A program made the translations under genes and the position numbers. Of a stretch of 64,000 nt of DNA, positions 2,932 through 35,892 are shown one piece after another. This DNA is from an uncultured Alphaproteobacteria bacterium. GTDB lineage: Bacteria > Pseudomonadota > Alphaproteobacteria > HIMB59 > GCA-002718135. The DNA lies in the NCBI GenBank assembly GCA_902603095.1, contig CACKTS010000002.1, positions 3,652 through 67,651 of the forward strand, read 5' to 3'. Each line of letters begins with the position of its first letter. The stretch's first letter is position 1. Below the pieces are notes generated by a model that saw only the letters and a program-made list of their open reading frames with translations, was not told the DNA's origin and ran no database searches.

Positions 2932-3716
2932 TAAGTACTATTTTTATTTGATTTCTTATTTTTATCTTTCATTTCATCTATTACAGATTGCGCATGAGTT
3001 GATAAAAATCTAAAATCTGATGAAATAGTAACTAATTTAAAACCTAAATCTATCATCTCTTTAGCGTATTTAGTAGTTCCATTATGAATACCAGCAATTT
3101 TACCGTATTCATTTGTTTTTTTTGCAATTAACTTTATTTTTGAAAAAACAGGATCTTCTTTAACATCAAATTTAGGGGAAAGACCATAAGAGGAACTCAT
3201 ATCAGCTGGTCCAATGTACACTCCTGTTAAATTAGGTACAGATAGTATATCATCTAAATTATTAACTGCTTGTTCAGTTTCTATCATTGCAAAGCTTAGA
3301 ATATTATTATTTGCATTGGAGAAATAATCTGATCCATGAATTAGTTGAGCACGCATTGGCCCAAAACTTCTTTGTCCGATGGGAGGGTAATAACAATAAG
3401 AAACAAAATTTTCACAGTCTTTTTTTGAATTGATCATTGGGGCTATAATTCCCATAACTCCTAAATCAAGCATTCTCATAATAATACCAGGTTCAGACCA
3501 AGGAACTCTAACCATTGCTGTTGATTGACTTGAAGATAAACTTTGTAACATAGAAATACTTGTAGAGTAGTCTGTTTGCCCATGTTGCATATCTATAGTA
3601 ATGGAATCCCAGCCCATCTTACCAAAAGCTTCAGCAGTAAAAGAATTAGGTATAGACAACCATGCATTAATAACTGGTTTCTTCTCTTCCCATAGTTTAA
3701 TCAGTTGATTATTCAC
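2928..3716 (-). CDS. HpcH/HpaI family aldolase (2-keto-3-deoxy-acid aldolase type)
   Basis: 262 aa. GTG start. Family-typical segments ...WDSITIDMQHG..., ...AMVRVPW..., ...MIETEQAVNNLDDIL...GVYIGPADMS... Confidence 0.8.
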   Translation of the reverse strand: MNNQLIKLWEEKKPVINAWLSIPNSFTAEAFGKMGWDSITIDMQHGQTDYSTSISMLQSLSSSQSTAMVRVPWSEPGIIMRMLDLGVMGIIAPMINSKKDCENFVSYCYYPPIGQRSFGPMRAQLIHGSDYFSNANNNILSFAMIETEQAVNNLDDILSVPNLTGVYIGPADMSSSYGLSPKFDVKEDPVFSKIKLIAKKTNEYGKIAGIHNGTTKYAKEMIDLGFKLVTISSDFRFLSTHAQSVIDEMKDKNKKSNKNSTY

Positions 3717-22115: not shown

Positions 22116-22146
22116 AAAAAAACCGCCTTTAAATAAGGCGGTTTTT
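22116..22146 (-). terminator. rho-independent terminator downstream of glnA
   Basis: GC-containing hairpin ccgcctt(22123-22129)/aaggcgg(22135-22141) with a 5-nt loop. It is flanked by A7 on the plus strand (a U-run on the minus strand) and by T5. It lies 21 nt past the glnA stop. Confidence 0.7.
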
Positions 22147-22166: not shown

Positions 22167-23600
22167 TTAAACATCATAATAAAGATTAAATTCATGGGGA
22201 TGTGGTCTTAGATCCATTGGACTTACTTCATTTTCTCTTTTGTAAGCAATATAAGTTTCTATGTTATCTTTAGTAAATACATCACCTTTTAACAAATATT
22301 TATGATCTTTCTCTAATGCATCAAGAGATTCAGCAAGTGAACCAGGCGTAGAAGGGATTTTTGCAAGAACACTTTCAGGAGCTTCATAAATATTAATGTC
22401 TGTTGGTTTTCCTGGATTTATTTTATTTTTAACTCCATCTAGTCCTGCCATTAATATTGCTGAAAAAGCTAAATAAGGGTTTGATGAAGGGTCAGGACAT
22501 CTAAATTCAATTCTTTTAGCTTTTGGACTAGCAGTGTAATTATTTGGTATTCTCACTGAAGCAGTTCTGTTAGCAGCAGAATAAGCAATATTTACAGGTG
22601 CTTCAAATCCAGGTACCAATCGTTTATATGAATTTGTTGTAGGTGCGCAAAATGCCAATAAAGAAGGTGCATGTTTAAGTATCCCTCCAATATAATGTAA
22701 TGCAAAATCACTTAAATCTGCATAGTTACCTTTTTTATACATTAGTGTTTTATTTTTTTTCCAGATACTAGAATGAACATGCATGCCTGATCCATTATCT
22801 TCAAAAAGTGGTTTTGGCATAAATGTTGCAGTAAGACCATGAAGTTTAGCAACATTTTTAACAACATATTTATATCTCAATAAATCATCAGCCATTAACA
22901 AAAGTGGTGAGAATTCTAAATCAATCTCACATTGTCCACCTGTTGCAACTTCATGGTGAGAAGCTTCAACATTAATACCAATATCTTCCATTGTTAAAAC
23001 CATTTCAGTTCTTACATCTTGCAAACTATCAGATGGAGGTAATGGGAAGTAACCTCCTTTATGTCTTGGTTTATGACCTAAATTCGGGTTTTCATCTTTT
23101 CCTGTGTTCCATGCTCCTTCAGCAGAGTCTACTTCATGAAAAGCAAAATTAGAACCTGAATCATATTTAACATCATTAAATACAAAAAACTCAGCTTCAG
23201 GACCAAAATATGCTGTATCACCCATACCAGAAGATTTAAGATATTTTTCTGCTTTTTTTGCAATATATCTAGGATCTCTCGCATAACTTTCATAAGTAAT
23301 TGGATCAACAACATCACAAGTAAATGCAATTGTTTTTTCAGAGTAAAAAGGATCAATATATCCAGTAGTTACATCAGGAACCATTGCCATATCACTATTC
23401 TCTATTGATTGAAAACCTCTTACGGATGATCCGTCAAAACCAACACCATCTTTAAATAAATCTTCAGTTAAATACTTAACTGGAATAGAAATATGATGAG
23501 TCGATCCAGGCAAGTCTGTGAAACGAAGATCAACCATTTTAATTTCTTCATTTTTAATTTTTTTTAATAACTCTTTTGGAGTTTTACAGTTATATTTCAT
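22167..23600 (-). CDS. glnA: glutamine synthetase type I
   Basis: About 477 aa from ATG 23600 ([14 protein letters not shown]...), which has a GAGGT RBS 7 nt upstream. The track start at 23636 is an upstream extension. Motifs: ...GSGMHVHSS..., ...[13 protein letters not shown]..., adenylylation-loop NIYEAP. Confidence 0.95.
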
Positions 23601-23689
23601 AATTACCTCATGTCTAACATTGACTAATCTCACCAATTGAAATTAGTTTATTACTTATTCATGCTCTAGTTATGAAATCTGCTTTTAAT

Positions 23690-23849: not shown

Positions 23850-24191
23850 TTAGACAGCATCACTGTCTTTTTCACCAGTTCTTATTCTTATAACTTGATC
23901 TATATTGTAAATGAATATCTTACCATCGCCAATTTTTCCTGAATATGCAGCATTTTTTATTGCATCTGTTACTTTTTCAGCGTCCTCATCTTCGACTATT
24001 ACTTCTAATTTCATTTTAACAAGAAATTCATCATCATATTCTTGATTATTTTCAATGCCACCGCTAGATCCTCTTTGTCTTCCAAAACCCTTAACATCAG
24101 TAACTGTCATACCTGATATACCAACCTCATGTAAGGCTTCTTTTACAACAGATAACTTAAATGGTTTTATTATTGCTTCAATTTTTTTCAT
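23850..24191 (-). CDS. glnB: nitrogen regulatory protein P-II
   Basis: 113 aa. MKKIEAIIKPFKL..., GFGRQ..., B-loop SGKIGDGKIF, C-terminal IRIRTGE. The T-loop apex is divergent (RGSSGGIENNQEYDDEF) but a Tyr is retained at the position equivalent to Tyr51. Confidence 0.9.
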   Translation of the reverse strand: MKKIEAIIKPFKLSVVKEALHEVGISGMTVTDVKGFGRQRGSSGGIENNQEYDDEFLVKMKLEVIVEDEDAEKVTDAIKNAAYSGKIGDGKIFIYNIDQVIRIRTGEKDSDAV

Positions 24192-25345
24192 ATAAATGAA
24201 AGTCTATAAATTGCTTCTTCTAAATTTTCCATTGAATTCGCATAACTTAATCTTATAAAATTTTCAGCTGTTTCTCCAAAACTTTTACCTGGAACTAGAG
24301 CAACTCCTTTTTCTTCAAGCGCTATATCAGAAAACCTCTGTCCATTTAGTCCAGATTTTGAAACATTAGGAAAAGCATAAAATGCACCTCCTGGTTTAAA
24401 GCATGTCATGTTATTAAGCTTATTTAATTCAAAATAAATAAATTCTTTTCTTTTTTGAAATTCTTTTTTTATTTTTTCAACTTCATTTTTAGGACCTTTC
24501 AATGCTTCAATTCCAGCATATTGAGAAATTGAATTTGGACATGAATGATCATTTACACAAAGTTTATTGGCATGCTCATACAACTTTTTAGGCCAAACAC
24601 TCCAGCCAAGTCTCCAACCTGTCATGCAAAATGTTTTGCTCCAACCTTCTAAAACTATTAATCTTTCTTTTAATATTTCATAATTTAAAAGAGACGGCAT
24701 TTTTTCATCTTCAAATATAATTTTACTATATATTTCATCAGATAAGACAAATACCTCAGGATACTTTTCTAACATTTTAACAATTTTTTCTATTTTAAAT
24801 TGATTCATAAATGCACCTGTTGGGTTATTAGGATTATTAATAATAATTAAGCTAGTTTTATTTGTTATTAGTTGCTCTAACTTTTCAATATTAATTTCAA
24901 AATTATCCTCTTCAGAAAGTTTTAGAGGAATACCTCTAGCGCCACTAAAATTGATCATCGAACGATAAATTGGAAATCCTGGATCAGGATAAATTATTTC
25001 ATTCTCCTCACCTCCTAAAATAAGACATGAATAAAAAATGGTTGGCTTACCTCCTGGTGTGATTAAAATTTGATCAGGGCTAACATTAACTTTATAATCT
25101 TTATTAATTTTTTCAGATACCGCTTCTCGTAAAGGTAGGATCCCATTTGACGGTGTGTATCCATGATGCCCATCTTTAATGGCTTTTATTGCAGCTTCTT
25201 GTATATTTGATGGAGTTGGAAAATCTGGTTGTCCTATACCTAGATTGATAATATCCCTACCTTCTGAAATAAGTTTTGTTGCTTTAGCAAGTATCGCAAA
25301 AGCTGATTCTGTCTCTAAATTAATTATTTTTTTTGAAACTTTCAT
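24188..25345 (-). CDS. pyridoxal-phosphate-dependent aminotransferase class I/II (aspartate aminotransferase-like)
   Basis: 385 aa. ...INLGIGQPDFPTP..., ...NNPNNPTG..., PLP-lysine context WSKTFCMTGWRLGW. ATGA overlap with glnB. Confidence 0.85.
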   Translation of the reverse strand: MKVSKKIINLETESAFAILAKATKLISEGRDIINLGIGQPDFPTPSNIQEAAIKAIKDGHHGYTPSNGILPLREAVSEKINKDYKVNVSPDQILITPGGKPTIFYSCLILGGEENEIIYPDPGFPIYRSMINFSGARGIPLKLSEEDNFEINIEKLEQLITNKTSLIIINNPNNPTGAFMNQFKIEKIVKMLEKYPEVFVLSDEIYSKIIFEDEKMPSLLNYEILKERLIVLEGWSKTFCMTGWRLGWSVWPKKLYEHANKLCVNDHSCPNSISQYAGIEALKGPKNEVEKIKKEFQKRKEFIYFELNKLNNMTCFKPGGAFYAFPNVSKSGLNGQRFSDIALEEKGVALVPGKSFGETAENFIRLSYANSMENLEEAIYRLSFI

Positions 25346-25400
25346 AATTTTGGTATAGCCAATAAATTTTATTAATAAAACTTAATTTTATCAATAAAAT

Positions 25401-25638: not shown

Positions 25639-25656
25639 TTTTAATGAGGTAATTTG

Positions 25657-27007
25657 ATGTCAATAAAAGAAATAAAATCAGGAACTTTATATAAAGAGTA
25701 TTCATTAGAAATTCCATATGAGGAAATAAATCAAATTATTGAATCTAAAATAAATGAAATTTTACCAACAGTATCAATGCCTGGTTTTAGAAAAGGAAAG
25801 GCCCCAGCCAATATTGTTAGAAAAAAATATGAAAGCTCAGTAATTTCTGAAGCTATTGAAAATTTAGTACAAACTAAAACAAAAGATTTACTTGATAAAA
25901 AAAATCTTAAACCATTTACTCAACCCAAAATAGATTTAAAAAAATATGAAAAAAATCAACCAATAGAGGTTGAAATAAAAATAGATCTTGAGCCAGAAAT
26001 TATACTTAAAGATTTTAAAAAAATTAATGTTAATAAATATGAAATTAAATTAGATAAATCAATTATAGAAAAAAATTATAAAGAATTTCTTAATTCTCAA
26101 AAACAATATTCAAAAATAGTAAATAACAGAGAAATTAAAATTTCTGATAAAGTATTAATTAATCTTTCTTCTAATGATGAGATTACTCCAGATTTTTTAA
26201 AATTACAAAAAAAACCTTCCAATAATAATTGATTCTGAGTATCAAATATTACCTGATATAGGCACTAAACTAAAAGAAAAAAAACTAAAAAAAGGTGACA
26301 AAACAAATATTAATTTGGATGTATCAAAATCATTAAAACTAAACGAAAAAAAAATGATAAATTTCGAAATAGAAGTTATTGAAATTGAAGAGTCAGTTCC
26401 TTTCGTTGTTGATAAAGAATTTTTAGAAAAAAACAGTTTAAAAAATGAAGAAGAATTGAAAAAAAATCTAGAAATTAATCTTAAATCTCAATTTGAAAAT
26501 GGATTAAAACAAATAGAAAAAAAAGAGCTCATGGATACATTGGATCTAGAGCATCAATTTGATTTACCTCAAGGTATTATAGATCAAGAATTTAATGATA
26601 TTTGGCATAGACTGGAGCATGCAAAAAAAGATGGAAAGTTAGATGATGATGATAAAAAACTAAATGATGATCAGCTAAAAAAAAGATATGAAAAAATTTC
26701 AAAAAGAAGAGTAAAGTTGGCGATCCTGCTACAGCACATTGCCAAAGAAAATAAAATATCTGTTGAAGAAAAAGAAATATCTAATGGAATGATGGCTTAT
26801 GCTTCTCAATATCCTGGTCAAGAGAAGCAAATAATTGAATATTTCAAAAATAATCCATCTTCTATAGAAACTATAAGAGGTCCAATTTTAGAAGAAAAAG
26901 TCATAGAAACTGTCATTTCAGGGGCAAAAGTAACTAAAAAAATAGTAAGTAAAGATGAATATGAAAAACTTGAGAAAAAAACTTTCGACGTTAAAAAGGG
27001 AAAATAA
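25657..27007 (+). pseudogene. tig: trigger factor, reading frame broken by a 1-nt homopolymer indel (possibly a sequencing artefact)
   Basis: Track ORFs 25654-26232 (frame 1; ...MPGFRKGKAPANIVRKKY...) and 26315-27007 (frame 2) are the N- and C-terminal parts of one ~450-aa trigger factor. Frame 2 is already open from 26201 and reads ...KKNLPIIIDSEYQILPDIGTKLKEKKLKKGD... The switch maps to the A8 run at 26207-26214. Confidence 0.85.
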
Positions 27008-27618
27008 TGAAAGATATTGAAAAAATTACTAATAATTTGATACCTATGGTTGTTGAACAATCTTCTCGTGGGGAAAGAGCATATGATATTTATTCACGAT
27101 TGCTGAAAGAAAGAATAATTTTTCTCACTGGACCAATTGATGATAACACTGCAAGTCTAATTTGTGCTCAACTATTATTTTTAGAGTCAGAAAATCCAAA
27201 AAAAGAAATTTCTTTTTATATCAATTCACCAGGTGGTATCGTTTGGTCAGGACTGGCCATTTATGATACTATGCAATACATTTCATCAGAAATTATGACA
27301 ATATGTATAGGGCAAGCTGCTTCTGCTGGTTCTTTGTTACTTACTGCAGGTTCAAAAGACATGAGATTCTCATTGCCTAATTCAAGAATTATGGTTCATC
27401 AACCAAGTGGAGGGTATCAAGGTCAAGTCACTGATATTGAAATTCAAACCACTGAAATAAAAAAAACAAAAGAAAAGTTAAATAAAATTTATGCTAAACA
27501 TACAGACAATAAAATTGAAGATGTTGAAAAAATTATGGAGAGAGATAAATATTTTTCTCCAGAAGAAGCAATAAAGTTTGGTTTGATTGATAAAATTGTG
27601 GAGAATAGAAAAAATTAA
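27007..27618 (+). CDS. clpP: ATP-dependent Clp protease proteolytic subunit
   Basis: 203 aa. ...[12 protein letters not shown]..., catalytic Ser context [11 protein letters not shown], ...MVHQPSGG... Confidence 0.95.
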
Positions 27619-28091
27619 TGACCAAGAAAGAGGAAAAAGAAACTTTATTTTGTTCCTTTTGCGGAAAAAGTCAAAAGGAAGTAAAAAAATTAATAGCAGG
27701 TCCAACTGTTTTTGTATGTGATGAGTGTGTTGAACTATGTATGGACATTATAAAAGAAGATACAAAAAATAGTAAATCAAAATTAAAAAAAGATACTCCA
27801 AAACCAAGAGAAATAAAAAAATTTTTGGATGATTTTGTTATTGGTCAAAATAATGCAAAAAAAATATTATCTGTAGCAGTATATAATCATTATAAAAGAT
27901 TAGCTCATTCTAGTTTTGAAGATGTTGAAATCTCTAAATCTAATATTTTATTAGTTGGTCCAACTGGCACAGGTAAGACTTTATTAGCTCAAACTTTAGC
28001 AAAAATTCTAGATGTCCCATTTACAGTTGCTGATGCTACTAGTTTAACCGAAGCAGGATATGTTGTAAAATTCAAATTAATCAAGTTATAA
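27618..28091 (+). pseudogene. clpX: clpX 5' fragment only (zinc-binding domain and Walker A), truncated at about nt 28065
   Basis: 157-aa [33 protein letters not shown], then ...[39 protein letters not shown], then unrelated VKFKLIKL*. Full-length ClpX is about 420 aa and continues ...EAGYVGEDVENI... Confidence 0.85.
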
Positions 28092-31046: not shown

Positions 31047-32411
31047 CTAATAAAATGAGAGTAATGACTCTAATTTCTTAATATAATTTGTTTCAGCAAA
31101 AAAAACAACGTCATCATTTTCTTTAAAAACTGTTGTGCTATTAGGAATTATAATTTTATCATTTCTAAAAATTGAAGCAATTCTTATTCCTTTAGGTAAA
31201 CTTAAATCTTTTAAGTTTTTATTACACAAAGCAGTCTGTTTCTTTATTACAGCTTCAATAACCTCACCAAAACCATCGCCAATTGAATAATCACTCATGA
31301 TTCCCCCTCCTCTAACCTTTTCCAAAATTTTTGAAATAGTTATAAGTTTAGGATCTATAGTAATATCTATACCTATATTAGATAACAAAGAGGTGTATGA
31401 GCTATTGTTAATTAATGTTATACACTGATCAGCACCTGCTCTCTTTGCTAACAATGAAGCAAGTATATTAACCTCATCATCTTCAGTTACAGCCACAAAA
31501 TAATCTGCATCGGAAATATTAACTTCATCCAAAATTTGATTATCAAGACCATCTCCATTTGTTACAGTTACATTTTTTAAATTAGATGCTAAAAATTCAG
31601 ATCTATCTTTACTATTTTCAATTAATTCTGTTGATATTCCAGAGTCATATTGTTCAATTAATTCTGATAATGAAAAACCAATATTACCTCCTCCAATAAT
31701 TACTATTTTCTTTGCTTGAATTTCTTTGTGACCAAATTCCATTAGGACGTCTTTTAAATTCTGTGTCTCCACAACCATATAAATTAAATCATTAGCTTCA
31801 ATTTTAGTATAAGAATTAACAATAAATTTTTTGTCTCCTCTAAAAATAAATAAAATATTAGCAAGATAGTCTGGAAATTTAGCTGAAAGTTCTCTTACAG
31901 TTAGGCCTAAATGATCACATATTGGTTCACATTTAAAACCTATTAATTTTAATTTTTTTTCAGATAATTCAACCATATCAATTGTACCAGGTGATATAAT
32001 TCTTCTATGAAAGGCGCTTGCTACTTCTTGTTCAGGAGATATTATTGCATCAATTGGTAAATTGTTTTTTGTATATAAATTTTGCCATTCACCTTTTAAA
32101 TAATCTTGCTGTCTTATACGTGCTATTTTTTTTGGTATATCAAATAAAGAATGTCCAATTTGACATGCAATCATATTTGTTTCGTCACTTTTTGTAACTG
32201 CGATTAAAATCTCACAATCATTTGCACCAGCATTTAATAAAACACTTGGTAAGCTTGGTTGACCTGAAATTACTTTAACATCAAGATTTTCAGAAATTTT
32301 ATTTAATTTTGCTGAAGGCTCATCAACGACTGTAACTTCAAAATTTTCTTTAGATAATTTATCAGCTATGCTGTATCCTACATCTCCTGATCCACAAATT
32401 ATAGTTTTCAT
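31047..32411 (-). CDS. trkA: Trk system potassium uptake protein TrkA (two RCK/NAD-binding repeats)
   Basis: 454 aa. MKTIICGSGDVGYSIA... and a second Rossmann motif IVIIGGGNIGFSL. Confidence 0.9.
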   Translation of the reverse strand: MKTIICGSGDVGYSIADKLSKENFEVTVVDEPSAKLNKISENLDVKVISGQPSLPSVLLNAGANDCEILIAVTKSDETNMIACQIGHSLFDIPKKIARIRQQDYLKGEWQNLYTKNNLPIDAIISPEQEVASAFHRRIISPGTIDMVELSEKKLKLIGFKCEPICDHLGLTVRELSAKFPDYLANILFIFRGDKKFIVNSYTKIEANDLIYMVVETQNLKDVLMEFGHKEIQAKKIVIIGGGNIGFSLSELIEQYDSGISTELIENSKDRSEFLASNLKNVTVTNGDGLDNQILDEVNISDADYFVAVTEDDEVNILASLLAKRAGADQCITLINNSSYTSLLSNIGIDITIDPKLITISKILEKVRGGGIMSDYSIGDGFGEVIEAVIKKQTALCNKNLKDLSLPKGIRIASIFRNDKIIIPNSTTVFKENDDVVFFAETNYIKKLESLLSFY

Positions 32412-32417
32412 TTTATT

Positions 32418-33752
32418 TTAATTAACCGAAATATTTAATGATTTTAGTTTTCGATAAAGTGCTGTTCTTTCCATACCAGTAAATTCTGATACTTTAGATA
32501 TATTACCACTAAACCTTTTTATTTGCGATAATAAATATTCTTTTTCAAACTCTAGTCTAGCTTCTTTGAGAGATAAGTCAAAATTATTAGAAGTATTTTG
32601 TTCTTTGTTGTAATCGCCCATTTCTAAAGCTAAATTATCAACATCAAGTATCAAATCTTTGGAAGAAGATTGATTAAGTATGACAGTTTTTTCTACATAA
32701 TTTACTAATTGAGCTATATTTCCAGGCCAATCAAACATTTCTAATTTTGAAATAGCTGATTTAGAAAAAGTAAGTTTGATATTTCTGTTATTAAATTTTA
32801 AAATATAATAATTTAGTATAGGTAATATATCAGCTACTCTTTCAGATAAACTTGGGCAAATTAAATGATCTACCTTTATTCTTTCATATAATCTTTTCAT
32901 AAAATTACCATTCAATATCTCATCCTCTATTTTTTTTTCAGAAATAGATATAATTTTTTGATCAAGTGTTACTTTAGAATTTTGAAAAAAGTCTTTGGAT
33001 TCAATAAAGAACAAAAACTGTTTTTGAAATTTAAGTGGTATTTGATCAATATTAAGAAGAATTAAAGTATTATTATTTGACCTTACAAAAATATTTTCAT
33101 TCAAATTTTTTATATTTTCAGAAAAAAGAACCTCTAGATTTTTTTCATTTAAATTTGAAAAATCAATTAAAATTGGTATTTTTTCTTTATACTTTGAATT
33201 CTTATGAATATTATTAGCTATTAATTTTTTTCCAACACCAAATGGCCCTTCTATCAATAACCTTGATTTAGATTTAGAAAATTCAATAATTTTTTTATTT
33301 ACTTGAGTATTAAAAACAGAGCTTCCTACTAAATTTTCATCATCCGAAATTAATTCTTTTAAATCTTTATTTTCATTATGAAGTTTAGAGCTTTCAATAG
33401 CTCGTTTAGCTAAAATGATTAATTTATCACTATTAAAAGGTTTTTCTAAAAAATCATAAGCTCCATTTTTTATTGCACTTACAGCTAAATCAACTGTTCC
33501 ATGACCACTAATTATTATTATAGGTATTTCTTTTTTAATTTTTTTGAATTCTTTTAAAAGTTCAATTCCATCTAGTTTACTATTTGAAAGCCAAACATCT
33601 AAAATAATAAGATTAGGGTTATACTTATTATAATTTGATAATGCTTCTTCTGAATTTAAAGCAGAATAAGTTAAATATTGTTCATCTTTTAATATTTCTG
33701 ATATAAGAAAACAAATATCTTTTTCATCATCAATAATTAATACTTTATACAT
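32418..33752 (-). CDS. ntrX: response regulator NtrX (receiver, degenerate AAA+ domain and Fis-type HTH)
   Basis: 444 aa. Receiver VLIIDDE...LIILDVWL...EKPF. AAA+ with GPFGVGKK but no GAFTGA. C-terminal HTH ISKVSEFTGMERTALYRKLK. Overlaps the ntrY stop by 8 nt. Confidence 0.8.
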   Translation of the reverse strand: MYKVLIIDDEKDICFLISEILKDEQYLTYSALNSEEALSNYNKYNPNLIILDVWLSNSKLDGIELLKEFKKIKKEIPIIIISGHGTVDLAVSAIKNGAYDFLEKPFNSDKLIILAKRAIESSKLHNENKDLKELISDDENLVGSSVFNTQVNKKIIEFSKSKSRLLIEGPFGVGKKLIANNIHKNSKYKEKIPILIDFSNLNEKNLEVLFSENIKNLNENIFVRSNNNTLILLNIDQIPLKFQKQFLFFIESKDFFQNSKVTLDQKIISISEKKIEDEILNGNFMKRLYERIKVDHLICPSLSERVADILPILNYYILKFNNRNIKLTFSKSAISKLEMFDWPGNIAQLVNYVEKTVILNQSSSKDLILDVDNLALEMGDYNKEQNTSNNFDLSLKEARLEFEKEYLLSQIKRFSGNISKVSEFTGMERTALYRKLKSLNISVN

Positions 33753-35892
33753 TTAAATTTTCAAATATTATTATGCTTGTTGTTCCGGCCATTTGTTTGT
33801 TTTTTTCTATTCTAATTTTTCCATTATGATCTTCAATAATTTTTTTAACTATTGAGAGTCCTAGCCCTGTTCCTTTATTTTTTGTAGTAAAATATGGCTC
33901 AAAAATTTTACTAGCAGTTTCTTTTGATATACCAACCCCATTATCTACAAACTCTATAAAAATCTTGTTATTTTCAATTCTTAAACTAACACTAATTGAT
34001 GGATTTGGAATTTTTTCAACAGATTCAACAGCATTTTTAATTAAATTATTAAAACTTTGAGTAAGTTGGAATTTATCAAATTGAAAATATATCTCTTTAT
34101 CTTCTAAATCAATTTTAAATTTAATATTTTTATGTGAATTAGAAAATAAAATATATGACTCATGTAAACATTTAGATAGATTATCTAGTTTGATTTCAGG
34201 TTCAGGCATTCTTGCAAAAGATGAAAATTCATCTATCAGTTTGCCGATATCATCTACTTGTCTTGATATTGTGTTTGTTAAAGTTTTAATATCATCATTT
34301 TCAAAATCATTATTTTTATATTTTTTTTCAATTCTTTCTGCTGATAATTTTATAGGTGTTAAAGGATTTTTAACTTCATGTGCTATTTTTCTTGCAATAT
34401 CAGACCAAGCTGCATGTTTTTCTGCTAAAATAAATGATGTGGTGTCATCTATTGCAACAACATAACCATTTATTTTCTCTTCTTTAAACTCTTTAATTAT
34501 CCTAACATTAAAATTTCTAAGATCATCATTAACCAATATTTCTACCTGAAAATTTTCAAGTATTTTTTTTGATTTTTTAAAGCTATTAAATATATTTTGC
34601 CACTCGGGAAAAATTATTAAAAAACTTTCATTTTCCTTTAACTTTTTTGCACCTTTAAAAAGTTTTTTTGCAGTTTGATTATAAAAAATAATATTAAAAT
34701 TATTATCTAATGAGATAACCCCTATTGTTAATAAGCTTAAAATAGCTTCGATAAATAATCTTTTTTCTTCATCTTCATTGCTCTTCTTAATTAGTTGATT
34801 TTGCTGGTTTTCAATTTCTACTATCATCTTGTTATAAGATGAAATTAATACTTTTATTTCTTCAAATTGATCTATTTCAGATACTTTAGCTTCAAAATTC
34901 CCTTTAGAGATTTCATTTGCTGATTCAATTAAATTAGATATGGGCTTTGACAGTTTTCTAGCTAAATTAAAACCAATTAAAATTGCTATTAAAATAAAAC
35001 CTATAGAAAAAAGAACAAATATCATCGAGTAAGTTATTTGTATGCCTGCACTTTCACTTTCTTTAGTGGTATATATTTTATAAGCATCTTTAGTTGCAGA
35101 AATATGATCCCAAATATTAGTATTTAATTCTCTATTAACTTGCATAAAGACATCATTTAAAAAATTAATTCTTTTATAAGCTGAAATTGAATTTTTATTT
35201 ACTTGAAAAATAAATACTCTATTTTGATCTAAAATTTTAAATATGTCCTCTGAAGGAAATAAAAAATTTTTATTTTCTTTATCCTTAAAATTTAAATAAA
35301 TTTCTCCAGATTTGTTAAATAAATAAATATTTGAAATAGTTCTTAAATTAATAAATTCGCTCAAACCTTGATTAATGGAATTAATATTTACTTCATTGTT
35401 CTTAGAAACCTTAAATATTTCTCTAGTAATTAATTGAGTATCTGAAATTATTTCAGCTTGTATTTCATTTTCATAATCTCTTGCAACGATATTAGAATTG
35501 ACTACAACCTCTCTTACTGCTCCCCCATACCAAGTTCTAAATTCTAAATTAAAAAAAAGTGAAGTTATAATCACAAGACCTATAGCTGGACCAACTGCCA
35601 TTGCTGCAAATAAATTAACAAATTTTATATATAATTTAGACTCATCCTTCTTATTTCTTCTGTAAATAAAAATTAAAATTACTTGTCTTAAAATTAAAGC
35701 TAAAAGTAATATTACAAGGAAGACATCTGCTAATAGAAAATATTGTAATTGCAGTGGATTTTTAACTAAATTGTTATTTGGCAACATTAAATAAAAAGTG
35801 ATTGAAAAACTGAGAAGTATTAGGCTGAGTAATAGATAAAACGAAAACTTTGTTAGATATAGTTTATTTAATATTTTTGTTAAACTGATCAC
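33745..35892 (-). CDS. ntrY: sensor histidine kinase NtrY (TM, HAMP, PAS, HisKA and HATPase domains)
   Basis: 715 aa. GTG start. N-terminal TM helices. H-box IARKIAHEVKNPLTPI. ATP-lid ...NAVES..., ...DNGVGI..., ...GTGLGLSIVKKIIEDH... Confidence 0.8.
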   Translation of the reverse strand: MISLTKILNKLYLTKFSFYLLLSLILLSFSITFYLMLPNNNLVKNPLQLQYFLLADVFLVILLLALILRQVILIFIYRRNKKDESKLYIKFVNLFAAMAVGPAIGLVIITSLFFNLEFRTWYGGAVREVVVNSNIVARDYENEIQAEIISDTQLITREIFKVSKNNEVNINSINQGLSEFINLRTISNIYLFNKSGEIYLNFKDKENKNFLFPSEDIFKILDQNRVFIFQVNKNSISAYKRINFLNDVFMQVNRELNTNIWDHISATKDAYKIYTTKESESAGIQITYSMIFVLFSIGFILIAILIGFNLARKLSKPISNLIESANEISKGNFEAKVSEIDQFEEIKVLISSYNKMIVEIENQQNQLIKKSNEDEEKRLFIEAILSLLTIGVISLDNNFNIIFYNQTAKKLFKGAKKLKENESFLIIFPEWQNIFNSFKKSKKILENFQVEILVNDDLRNFNVRIIKEFKEEKINGYVVAIDDTTSFILAEKHAAWSDIARKIAHEVKNPLTPIKLSAERIEKKYKNNDFENDDIKTLTNTISRQVDDIGKLIDEFSSFARMPEPEIKLDNLSKCLHESYILFSNSHKNIKFKIDLEDKEIYFQFDKFQLTQSFNNLIKNAVESVEKIPNPSISVSLRIENNKIFIEFVDNGVGISKETASKIFEPYFTTKNKGTGLGLSIVKKIIEDHNGKIRIEKNKQMAGTTSIIIFENLNV

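Follow-up and report, generated by a model that had tools for sequence, protein, structure and literature searches.

In the classical nitrogen-control system, GlnD is the glutamine sensor and writes its signal onto the T-loop of the PII protein, the canonical apex of this loop being the uridylylation-site signature around Tyr51. The same role of GlnD is laid out in the introduction of Smith et al. (2013, PMC3870248). Among the described systems closest to the one treated here, the PIIs of Bacillus (GlnK), archaea (GlnK) and plants are never modified and respond by effector-driven loop movement alone, so that PII sensing without modification has precedent, at least as given in excerpts of Merrick (2015, PMC4285133). 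Cyanobacteria combine a PII protein with a glutamine riboswitch acting on glutamine synthetase (GS) via IF17 (accessible text of Klaehn et al., 2018, PMC6212724); the glnA RNA motif is described as occurring in tandem and in proximity to PII, GS, glutamate synthase (GOGAT) and amt genes (excerpt of Weinberg et al., 2010, PMC2864571); and SAR11 IIIa/LD12 harbor an orphan glnB without glnD, the role of which is called unclear by the authors in the available portion of their paper (Lanclos et al., 2023, PMC10030771). Here we analyzed a 64,000-nucleotide stretch of DNA from an uncultured alphaproteobacterium (assembly GCA_902603095.1, contig CACKTS010000002.1, forward-strand positions 3,652 to 67,651; hereafter the window), in which a gene for a PII signal protein with a rewritten T-loop lies between an aminotransferase gene and the riboswitch-bearing leader of glnA (Table 1). 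We put at roughly 60% the probability that, in the family of the window, this PII is an unmodified 2-oxoglutarate/ATP sensor, with the glutamine input moved to RNA and the classical nitrogen cascade dismantled.

The initial annotation had described an aminotransferase gene overlapping glnB by an ATGA, followed by aptamers and glnA, and this layout was confirmed by the open reading frames (ORFs) and by matches to Pfam, RF01739 and TIGR00653: the stop codon of the aminotransferase and the start codon of PII have four bases in common, and the 213-nt spacer between PII and glnA holds two glutamine aptamers, both full-length (model positions 1-53 of 53). The locus was compared with 101 sampled genomes from the GTDB family to which the window belongs (f1) and with the sister family in the same order (f2, one genus); as most f1 relatives are incomplete metagenome-assembled genomes (MAGs), absences reported below mean not found in the genomes searched. 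Gene order is kept in five f1 genera, with clpX-clpP-tig-tRNAs on one side and aminotransferase-PII-two aptamers-glnA-topoisomerase B-like gene-glpK on the other. Orthologues of the aminotransferase (70-83% identity) occupy the same position in 12 f1 loci, joined to PII by an ATGA overlap or a gap of 3-9 nt in all five PII-bearing genera, and the pairing of PII with glutamine aptamers at one locus, as annotated for the window, recurs in all eight examined f1 loci containing PII as well as glnA. The f2 gene found between tig and glnA encodes a GlnB with a canonical loop; about 40 nt separate it from glnA, there is no aminotransferase, and GlnE is convergent downstream. The f2 GlnK, whose loop is canonical too, is encoded beside amtB. 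Placed between tig/tRNAs and glnA where f2 has glnB, the f1 PII is the positional orthologue of glnB.

Set against the canonical alphaproteobacterial GlnB of f2 and HIMB59, the f1 PII is alike in fold, in ATP/2-oxoglutarate residues and in its position between tig and glnA, but its loop is one residue longer with an unrelated, acidic and variable apex, neither GlnD, GlnE nor GlnK was found in f1, and the operon has gained an aminotransferase upstream and a tandem riboswitch downstream. As in the cyanobacterial control, one organism has both PII as a protein sensor and an RNA that senses glutamine; in f1, however, the aptamers precede glnA and amtB themselves, and the host is a heterotrophic alphaproteobacterium from which GlnD and GlnE appear to have been lost. 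In contrast to both the Weinberg and the cyanobacterial cases, the f1 PII gene is upstream of the aptamers rather than downstream. With SAR11 IIIa/LD12, f1 has in common a PII without glnD in a streamlined aquatic alphaproteobacterium. That these aptamers come in tandem and accompany nitrogen genes is already established; what f1 adds is a glnB orthologue orphaned of its cascade and endowed with a remodelled loop.

The T-loop carries the main evidence. In HMMER alignments to the three best-matching solved PIIs (2eg1, 1hwu and 1pil), all of which keep a canonical-type apex, the loop of the window PII is one residue longer and shows no identity between Gly41 and the Tyr, bearing out the reading of the initial annotation that only the Tyr is kept. 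For loop statistics, 24 distinct f1 PIIs were set against 76 ordinary GlnB/GlnK from many phyla, with residues 42-51 taken as the apex. Mean pairwise identity among the ordinary PIIs was 0.94 in the apex vs. 0.72 outside the loop, whereas the f1 PIIs gave 0.43 and 0.83, respectively; the conservation pattern of PII is therefore inverted in f1, with the apex being the most variable part instead of the most conserved. The columns of Glu44, Tyr46, Arg47, Gly48 and Glu50, invariant in the ordinary PIIs (76/76), have no counterpart in f1, the Arg47 column, for instance, being Arg in 76/76 vs. 0/24. The loop base is nearly fixed in f1 (R40 and G41, 24/24; D53, 22/24; D54, 24/24; E55, 23/24; F56, 24/24), and net charge of the loop averages -4.1, compared to -1.0 in ordinary PIIs. 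By a rough Nei-Gojobori count, the ratio of nonsynonymous to synonymous changes (dN/dS) was 0.19 in the apex, 0.06 in the rest of PII and 0.00 in the loop base, based on the 69 of 210 pairs, not independent of one another, with a proportion of synonymous differences (pS) below 0.5; the apex is relaxed, not neutral. A separate candidate, phosphorylation of Ser/Thr at residues 42-43, was rejected, these residues not being conserved beyond genus g1.

This loop type looks confined to the lineage. An in-frame DNA pattern run on 401 alphaproteobacterial genomes of 208 families matched just the two f1 genomes among them, with one further match out of frame. When the f1 PII profile was run on 1.84 billion cluster representatives, only one of the best 150 carried an f1-type loop (214.7 bits); the next representatives were multi-domain PIIs at 204.6 and 172.5 bits, one with two canonical loops and the other with divergent tandem PII domains, and canonical single-domain PIIs started at 153.5 bits. 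By regular expression, the canonical signature was present in 143 of these 150, the other six being minor variants or tandem PIIs. The loop is accordingly not a common one among GlnBs, as it is absent from the 76 ordinary GlnB/GlnK and carried by one in 150 of the best representatives, and this latter count suggests that the loops of SAR11 IIIa/LD12 may differ from it. No published description of this loop turned up in a literature search that did not extend to papers' supplementary tables, and the terms glnB, PII and P-II do not occur in the accessible portion of Getz et al. (2023).

Despite this rewriting, the protein belongs to the PII superfamily by profile, fold and ligand residues, with the canonical T-loop apex lacking. 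It matched Pfam PF00543 (P-II) at 113.2 bits (cut-off 25) over profile positions 1-102 of 102, but scored under the equivalog cut-offs of both GlnB (NF008111, 133.3 vs. 202 bits) and GlnK (NF007946, 128.4 vs. 181 bits). As for GlnB proper, the gene is directly upstream of glnA, whereas the score and the partner enzymes are wanting; as for GlnK, the score is under the cut-off, the gene was never beside amtB in 12 loci and the apex is without the basic residue of the Arg47 column. The AlphaFold2 model (mean predicted local distance difference test score, pLDDT, 87.7) is that of a standard PII subunit in the order strand-helix-strand-strand-helix-strand (E2-8, H10-22, E29-39, loop, E53-66, H68-82, E90-96), the apex being unstructured (pLDDT about 51 over residues 41-50) and the acidic YDDEF motif standing at the beginning of strand 3. 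The ligand-site regions of PII comprise the Gly-rich stretch before the loop, Gln39, the Lys58 equivalent, the B-loop GDGK and the C-terminal RxR. The translation contains GFGRQ, GKIGDGKIF and RIRTGE, the core motifs that had been called intact, and 15 positions (G27, M28, T29, G35, F36, G37, R38, Q39, K59, G88, D89, G90, K91, R102 and R104), which we take from published PII structures to be residues of the ATP/ADP and Mg-2-oxoglutarate site, are invariant in 23/23 f1 PIIs. Identity of f1 PII to canonical GlnB is 55-65%, and the first 13 residues are the same as in f2 GlnB. Metagenomic relatives at 88-96% identity number in the thousands and are marine; the ESM Atlas returned generic PII clusters only (0.90-0.91).

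These data bear on the reading that the PII is a relic, with the loop decaying after loss of its partners and the protein no longer signalling. The apex is indeed the least conserved part of the protein, and the gene is absent from two to three genera. However, the low dN/dS values outside the loop and at its base, with only 0.19 in the apex, the invariance of all ligand-site residues and the fixation of a new acidic motif at the base (D53, D54, E55) are at odds with decay, and none of the listed f1 PII matches contains a stop codon, five being partial, three of these at contig starts. We therefore consider a relic hardly credible.

In keeping with the rewritten loop, the enzymes that work with a canonical PII were not found in f1, and the different nitrogen-control architecture proposed in the initial annotation held up. 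A single-copy PII is present in 77/101 f1 genomes, while GlnD and GlnE were each found in 0/101, including 0/11 of those at ≥90% completeness, and across the order 0/151 genomes had an NtrC match exceeding the cut-off. A standard GlnD/GlnE/NtrBC set was thus found neither in the window's own genome nor in the family tallies; that genome (a MAG of 1.09 Mb, 67.5% complete) yielded no match for GlnD, GlnE or AmtB, and its NtrC-like gene is NtrX, with NF051870 as the best match (403 bits) and the NtrC model TIGR01818 at 185 against a cut-off of 558.6. NtrY/NtrX, rather than NtrB/NtrC, is the only pair with an NtrC-family (sigma-54-type) regulator found there. In a joint comparison, GlnD was present in 60/71 f2 vs. 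0/79 f1 genomes; among five good f2 genomes, PII was found in 5/5, in two copies in 4/5, and GlnE in 4/5. According to the text available from Smith et al. (2013, PMC3870248), nearly all of 266 alphaproteobacterial genomes have the canonical nitrogen-regulation genes; parsimony therefore favors loss in f1, and we infer that this was the direction of change.

The accessible text of the same paper also supports the statement in the initial annotation that SAR11 Ia is without the canonical PII-cascade genes, but the SAR11-like background assumed there found no support: the order is probably not core SAR11 and includes f2, with glnB-glnA, glnK-amtB, GlnD and GlnE. These four match the gene content given for HIMB59 ("subclade V") in that text, and for this reason a PII gene is not in itself unexpected here. 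Judging from published gene content, the order is probably the HIMB59/AEGEAN-169 group; genome sizes of 1.4-1.6 Mb and a GC content of about 27% fit that group as described in the part of Getz et al. (2023) at hand.

The glutamine riboswitches have the opposite distribution. Searches with RF01739 detected aptamers in 76/78 f1 genomes, with a maximum of eight per genome (a single match in one genome), but in 0/71 of f2. What one family has, the other lacks: GlnD/GlnE/GlnK without aptamers in f2, aptamers without those enzymes in f1. One f1 genome (G008, 96% complete) has its eight aptamers arranged as four tandem pairs, one each ahead of glnA, of the two amtB copies and of an operon for a circularly permuted ATP-grasp (CP-ATP-grasp) protein together with an Alpha-E and a transglutaminase-like protein. 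The tandem amtB copies (L140 1234-3395) each have their own aptamer pair, and coordinates show the same in many f1 genomes; the CP-ATP-grasp operon with tandem aptamers is at L139 235-3674 in G008 and also on L141, L142 and L143.

The identity of the genes, their conservation and synteny, and the way in which the parts complement one another between families are observed; ligand binding, absence of modification and the direction of loss are what our proposed explanation infers. The f1 PII would fold as a subunit of a PII trimer that keeps all ATP/ADP and Mg-2-oxoglutarate residues and, as fold and ligand residues are retained, most likely still reports carbon/nitrogen and energy state through ligand-driven movement of the T-loop. 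With GlnD (the uridylyltransferase), GlnE (the GS adenylyltransferase), GlnK and NtrB/C apparently lost, we surmise that the loop is no longer covalently modified and has been freed from fitting its old partners; its apex would then have given way to a longer stretch that is acidic and evolves fast, above a base ending in Y-D-D-E-F that is still under very strong selection. The glutamine signal, formerly fed into PII by GlnD, would be read instead by tandem riboswitches in the leaders of glnA, amtB and one further operon, and the locus would pair a protein sensor (2-oxoglutarate, energy) with an RNA sensor (glutamine).

Several points weigh against this explanation: 1) Tyr52, the equivalent of Tyr51, is conserved in 23/24 f1 PIIs, which could mean that another modifying enzyme acts there; 2) the absences rest on family tallies, given that the window genome is 67.5% complete and most relatives are incomplete MAGs; 3) in a tree with the loop masked, the f1 PIIs form one clade (SH-aLRT, the Shimodaira-Hasegawa-like approximate likelihood-ratio test, 94), but the sister of this clade is not settled (supports 44, 57 and 33), so that of the family placement suggested for checking in the initial annotation the grouping of f1 came out whereas its position among GlnBs did not, and orthology to glnB is argued from synteny; 4) PII is dispensable in some f1 relatives, since G004 and G006, representing two genera, have an intact aptamer-glnA locus and no PII gene in the genome. 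In one f1 genome (G005, L102 5951-6289), the Tyr51 equivalent is Phe, which fits a loop no longer modified there.

With regard to the fourth point, G004 and G006 are the only true cases of PII loss, their locus being intact but devoid of both PII and aminotransferase. We considered gene loss for the PII-less MAGs of genus g1 as well and rejected it, as the neighbouring aminotransferase is also missing in four of five tested and is truncated by a contig end in the fifth; in three PII-less g1 MAGs (G020, G023 and G042) the aptamer pair examined belongs to another operon. Most of the missing PIIs in g1 look like assembly gaps.

If the loop has been freed from its old partners, the question arises as to what it contacts now, and the different partner proteins suggested in the initial annotation are plausible. 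One candidate is AmtB, with the PII behaving like GlnK, plugging the channel at nitrogen plenty by means of a co-evolved loop as the only PII of the family. AmtB is the most widespread PII target; it is present in 88/101 f1 genomes, frequently in two tandem copies, and with GlnK lost, the single PII could have taken over. On the other hand, the PII gene was never beside amtB in the loci examined, and Tyr46, Arg47 and Gly48, found in all 76 ordinary PIIs, are absent from an apex that is the fastest-evolving part of the protein. Moreover, G003 (93% complete) has PII without an AmtB match, and amtB has glutamine aptamers of its own, not only on both G008 copies but also, as judged by coordinates, in at least 16 further f1 genomes, where an aptamer lies upstream at a distance of 200-330 nt. 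We consider AmtB an unlikely target, although ahead of the other candidates named here.

Some f1 genomes (3/101) encode a fusion of an ammonium transporter with a C-terminal SpoIIE/PP2C phosphatase domain (698 aa; L097 619-2715 in G022, also in G057 and G099), which could be an ammonium-sensing "transceptor". In G099 (61% complete; L109 3563-6885), a PII ORF of 103 aa is followed by a bactofilin gene and this fusion, without aptamers or glnA, an arrangement that may reflect a rearrangement or misassembly.

The co-translated aminotransferase is a second candidate, in which case PII would control the enzyme encoded just upstream and tune a transamination that consumes or produces 2-oxoglutarate to the level of this metabolite, thereby defining a new class of PII target. 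PII genes often adjoin their targets, and in f1 the two genes are tightly coupled throughout. Further in favor of this pairing, f2 has no orthologue (best matches 34-35% identical, 3/3 genomes), and G001 and G004 are without both PII and the orthologue. Yet an aminotransferase 46-51% identical to it is directly upstream of glnB-glnA in 4/79 other loci, and about 2.4 kb upstream in a fifth; as the PIIs of these loci have a canonical loop, the pairing occurs independently of the rewrite. In G006, which has no PII, an aminotransferase of 59% identity is retained at another place, and a literature search for such an interaction yielded no precedent. We view control of the aminotransferase as quite unlikely on balance. 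The enzyme itself matched Pfam Aminotran_1_2 (PF00155) at 209.2 bits (cut-off 19.7), with S236, K237 and T238 of the pyridoxal phosphate (PLP)-lysine stretch invariant in 17/17 sequences, and its closest solved structures are 1dju and 1gd9, the aromatic/aspartate enzymes of Pyrococcus; the top NCBIfam matches, aspartate aminotransferases, and all other equivalog matches fall under their cut-offs.

A third candidate is GS, with PII binding the enzyme directly as a fast brake or activator that replaces control by adenylylation. Direct effects of GlnK on GS have been reported in archaea, the PII gene adjoins glnA in f1, GlnE has been lost and the adenylylation loop of GS is remodelled: a single motif surrounds the Tyr in f2 and in three other alphaproteobacteria, whereas all nine f1 GS sequences keep the Tyr with changed flanks, which would fit the loss of GlnE. 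Adjacency of glnB and glnA is, however, ancestral and widespread (a GS match in 46/79 ordinary loci, mostly just downstream of glnB) and does not imply binding, and G004 and G006 retain the aptamer-glnA unit in the absence of any PII. Direct binding to GS thus strikes us as very unlikely. The f1 GS sequences are of two types, about 76% (L102, L106 and L016) or about 92-94% (L101, L103, L105 and L108) identical to that of the window, and this split does not track the assignment to genera, a hint that glnA alleles have been exchanged within f1.

Whatever probability AmtB, the aminotransferase, GS and the relic leave goes to a target encoded away from the locus. A bolder proposal, which we offer as speculation with long odds, would have the rewritten, acidic base of the T-loop contact a target outside those known for any PII, foremost the co-translated aminotransferase, so that 2-oxoglutarate gates its own transamination, and would have the GlnD/GlnE/GlnK cascade replaced within one order by aptamers before glnA, amtB and the CP-ATP-grasp operon.

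The T-loop is normally the most conserved surface of a very widespread signalling protein, and in f1 it is the most variable. The two families make up a natural before-and-after pair, f2 with GlnB, GlnK, GlnD and GlnE but no glutamine riboswitch, f1 with one remodelled PII and riboswitches, and the unmodified-sensor reading makes testable a question already raised in print for SAR11 IIIa/LD12, namely what PII does without GlnD. It suggests that streamlined ocean bacteria can swap a protein glutamine sensor for RNA. One published abstract puts the HIMB59/AEGEAN-169 group at several percent of the cells in oligotrophic gyres, so that the circuit would bear on marine nitrogen use.

Table 1. Features of the PII locus and of the NtrY/NtrX pair in the window (positions in the window, 5' to 3').
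Feature	Position	Strand	Basis
Aminotransferase, class I (aspartate/aromatic-type), PLP-dependent, 385 aa	24188-25345	-	ORF; Pfam PF00155
PII signal protein, 113 aa, positional orthologue of glnB	23850-24191	-	ORF; Pfam PF00543; synteny
Rewritten T-loop codons, residues 37-56 (GRQRG, variable apex, YDDEF)	24024-24083	-	Sequence; pattern match G000:C2:27675-27734
Glutamine riboswitch aptamer 1, RF01739	23750-23808	-	59.9 bits vs. gathering 35
Glutamine riboswitch aptamer 2, RF01739	23687-23737	-	66.5 bits vs. gathering 35
glnA, type I glutamine synthetase, diverged adenylylation loop (Tyr kept, flanks changed)	22167-23600	-	TIGR00653
Terminator-like hairpin and T run, 3' of glnA	22118-22146	-	Consensus scan, 12-pair stem; pattern match only
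Promoter-like site, TTGATA-17-TAAAAT, 5' of aminotransferase	25366-25394	-	Consensus scan, 10/12 positions
NtrY-like histidine kinase (33745-35892) and NtrX (32418-33752)	32418-35892	-	NtrX, NF051870, 403 bits

With respect to the remaining features of the locus, glnA matched TIGR00653 at 648.9 bits and probably starts at the ATG at 23600 rather than at the TTG at 23636 of the ORF list, its relatives being 476-477 aa long. Promoter-like sites in the region upstream of the aminotransferase were no more frequent than in shuffled sequence, so that the one tabulated is weak evidence for a promoter, and among 20 public RNA runs, at most 0.18 of the sampled words were present in any. The NtrY-like kinase and NtrX belong to a cluster with TrkA at 31047-35892, which has no ntrB/ntrC upstream.

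On the other side of the aminotransferase, the trigger factor gene (25654-27007) is in two ORFs, 25654-26232 and 26315-27007, the frame being shifted within a run of eight A near 26207-26211, while relatives have a single ORF of about 450 aa; the split may be a true frameshift or may stem from an error in sequencing or assembly. Farther along, clpX (27618-28091) ends after about 150 of its about 420 residues, the match stopping at 28064; unrelated minus-strand genes follow and the remainder of clpX is absent from the window, which may point to a rearrangement or to a chimeric join in the MAG.

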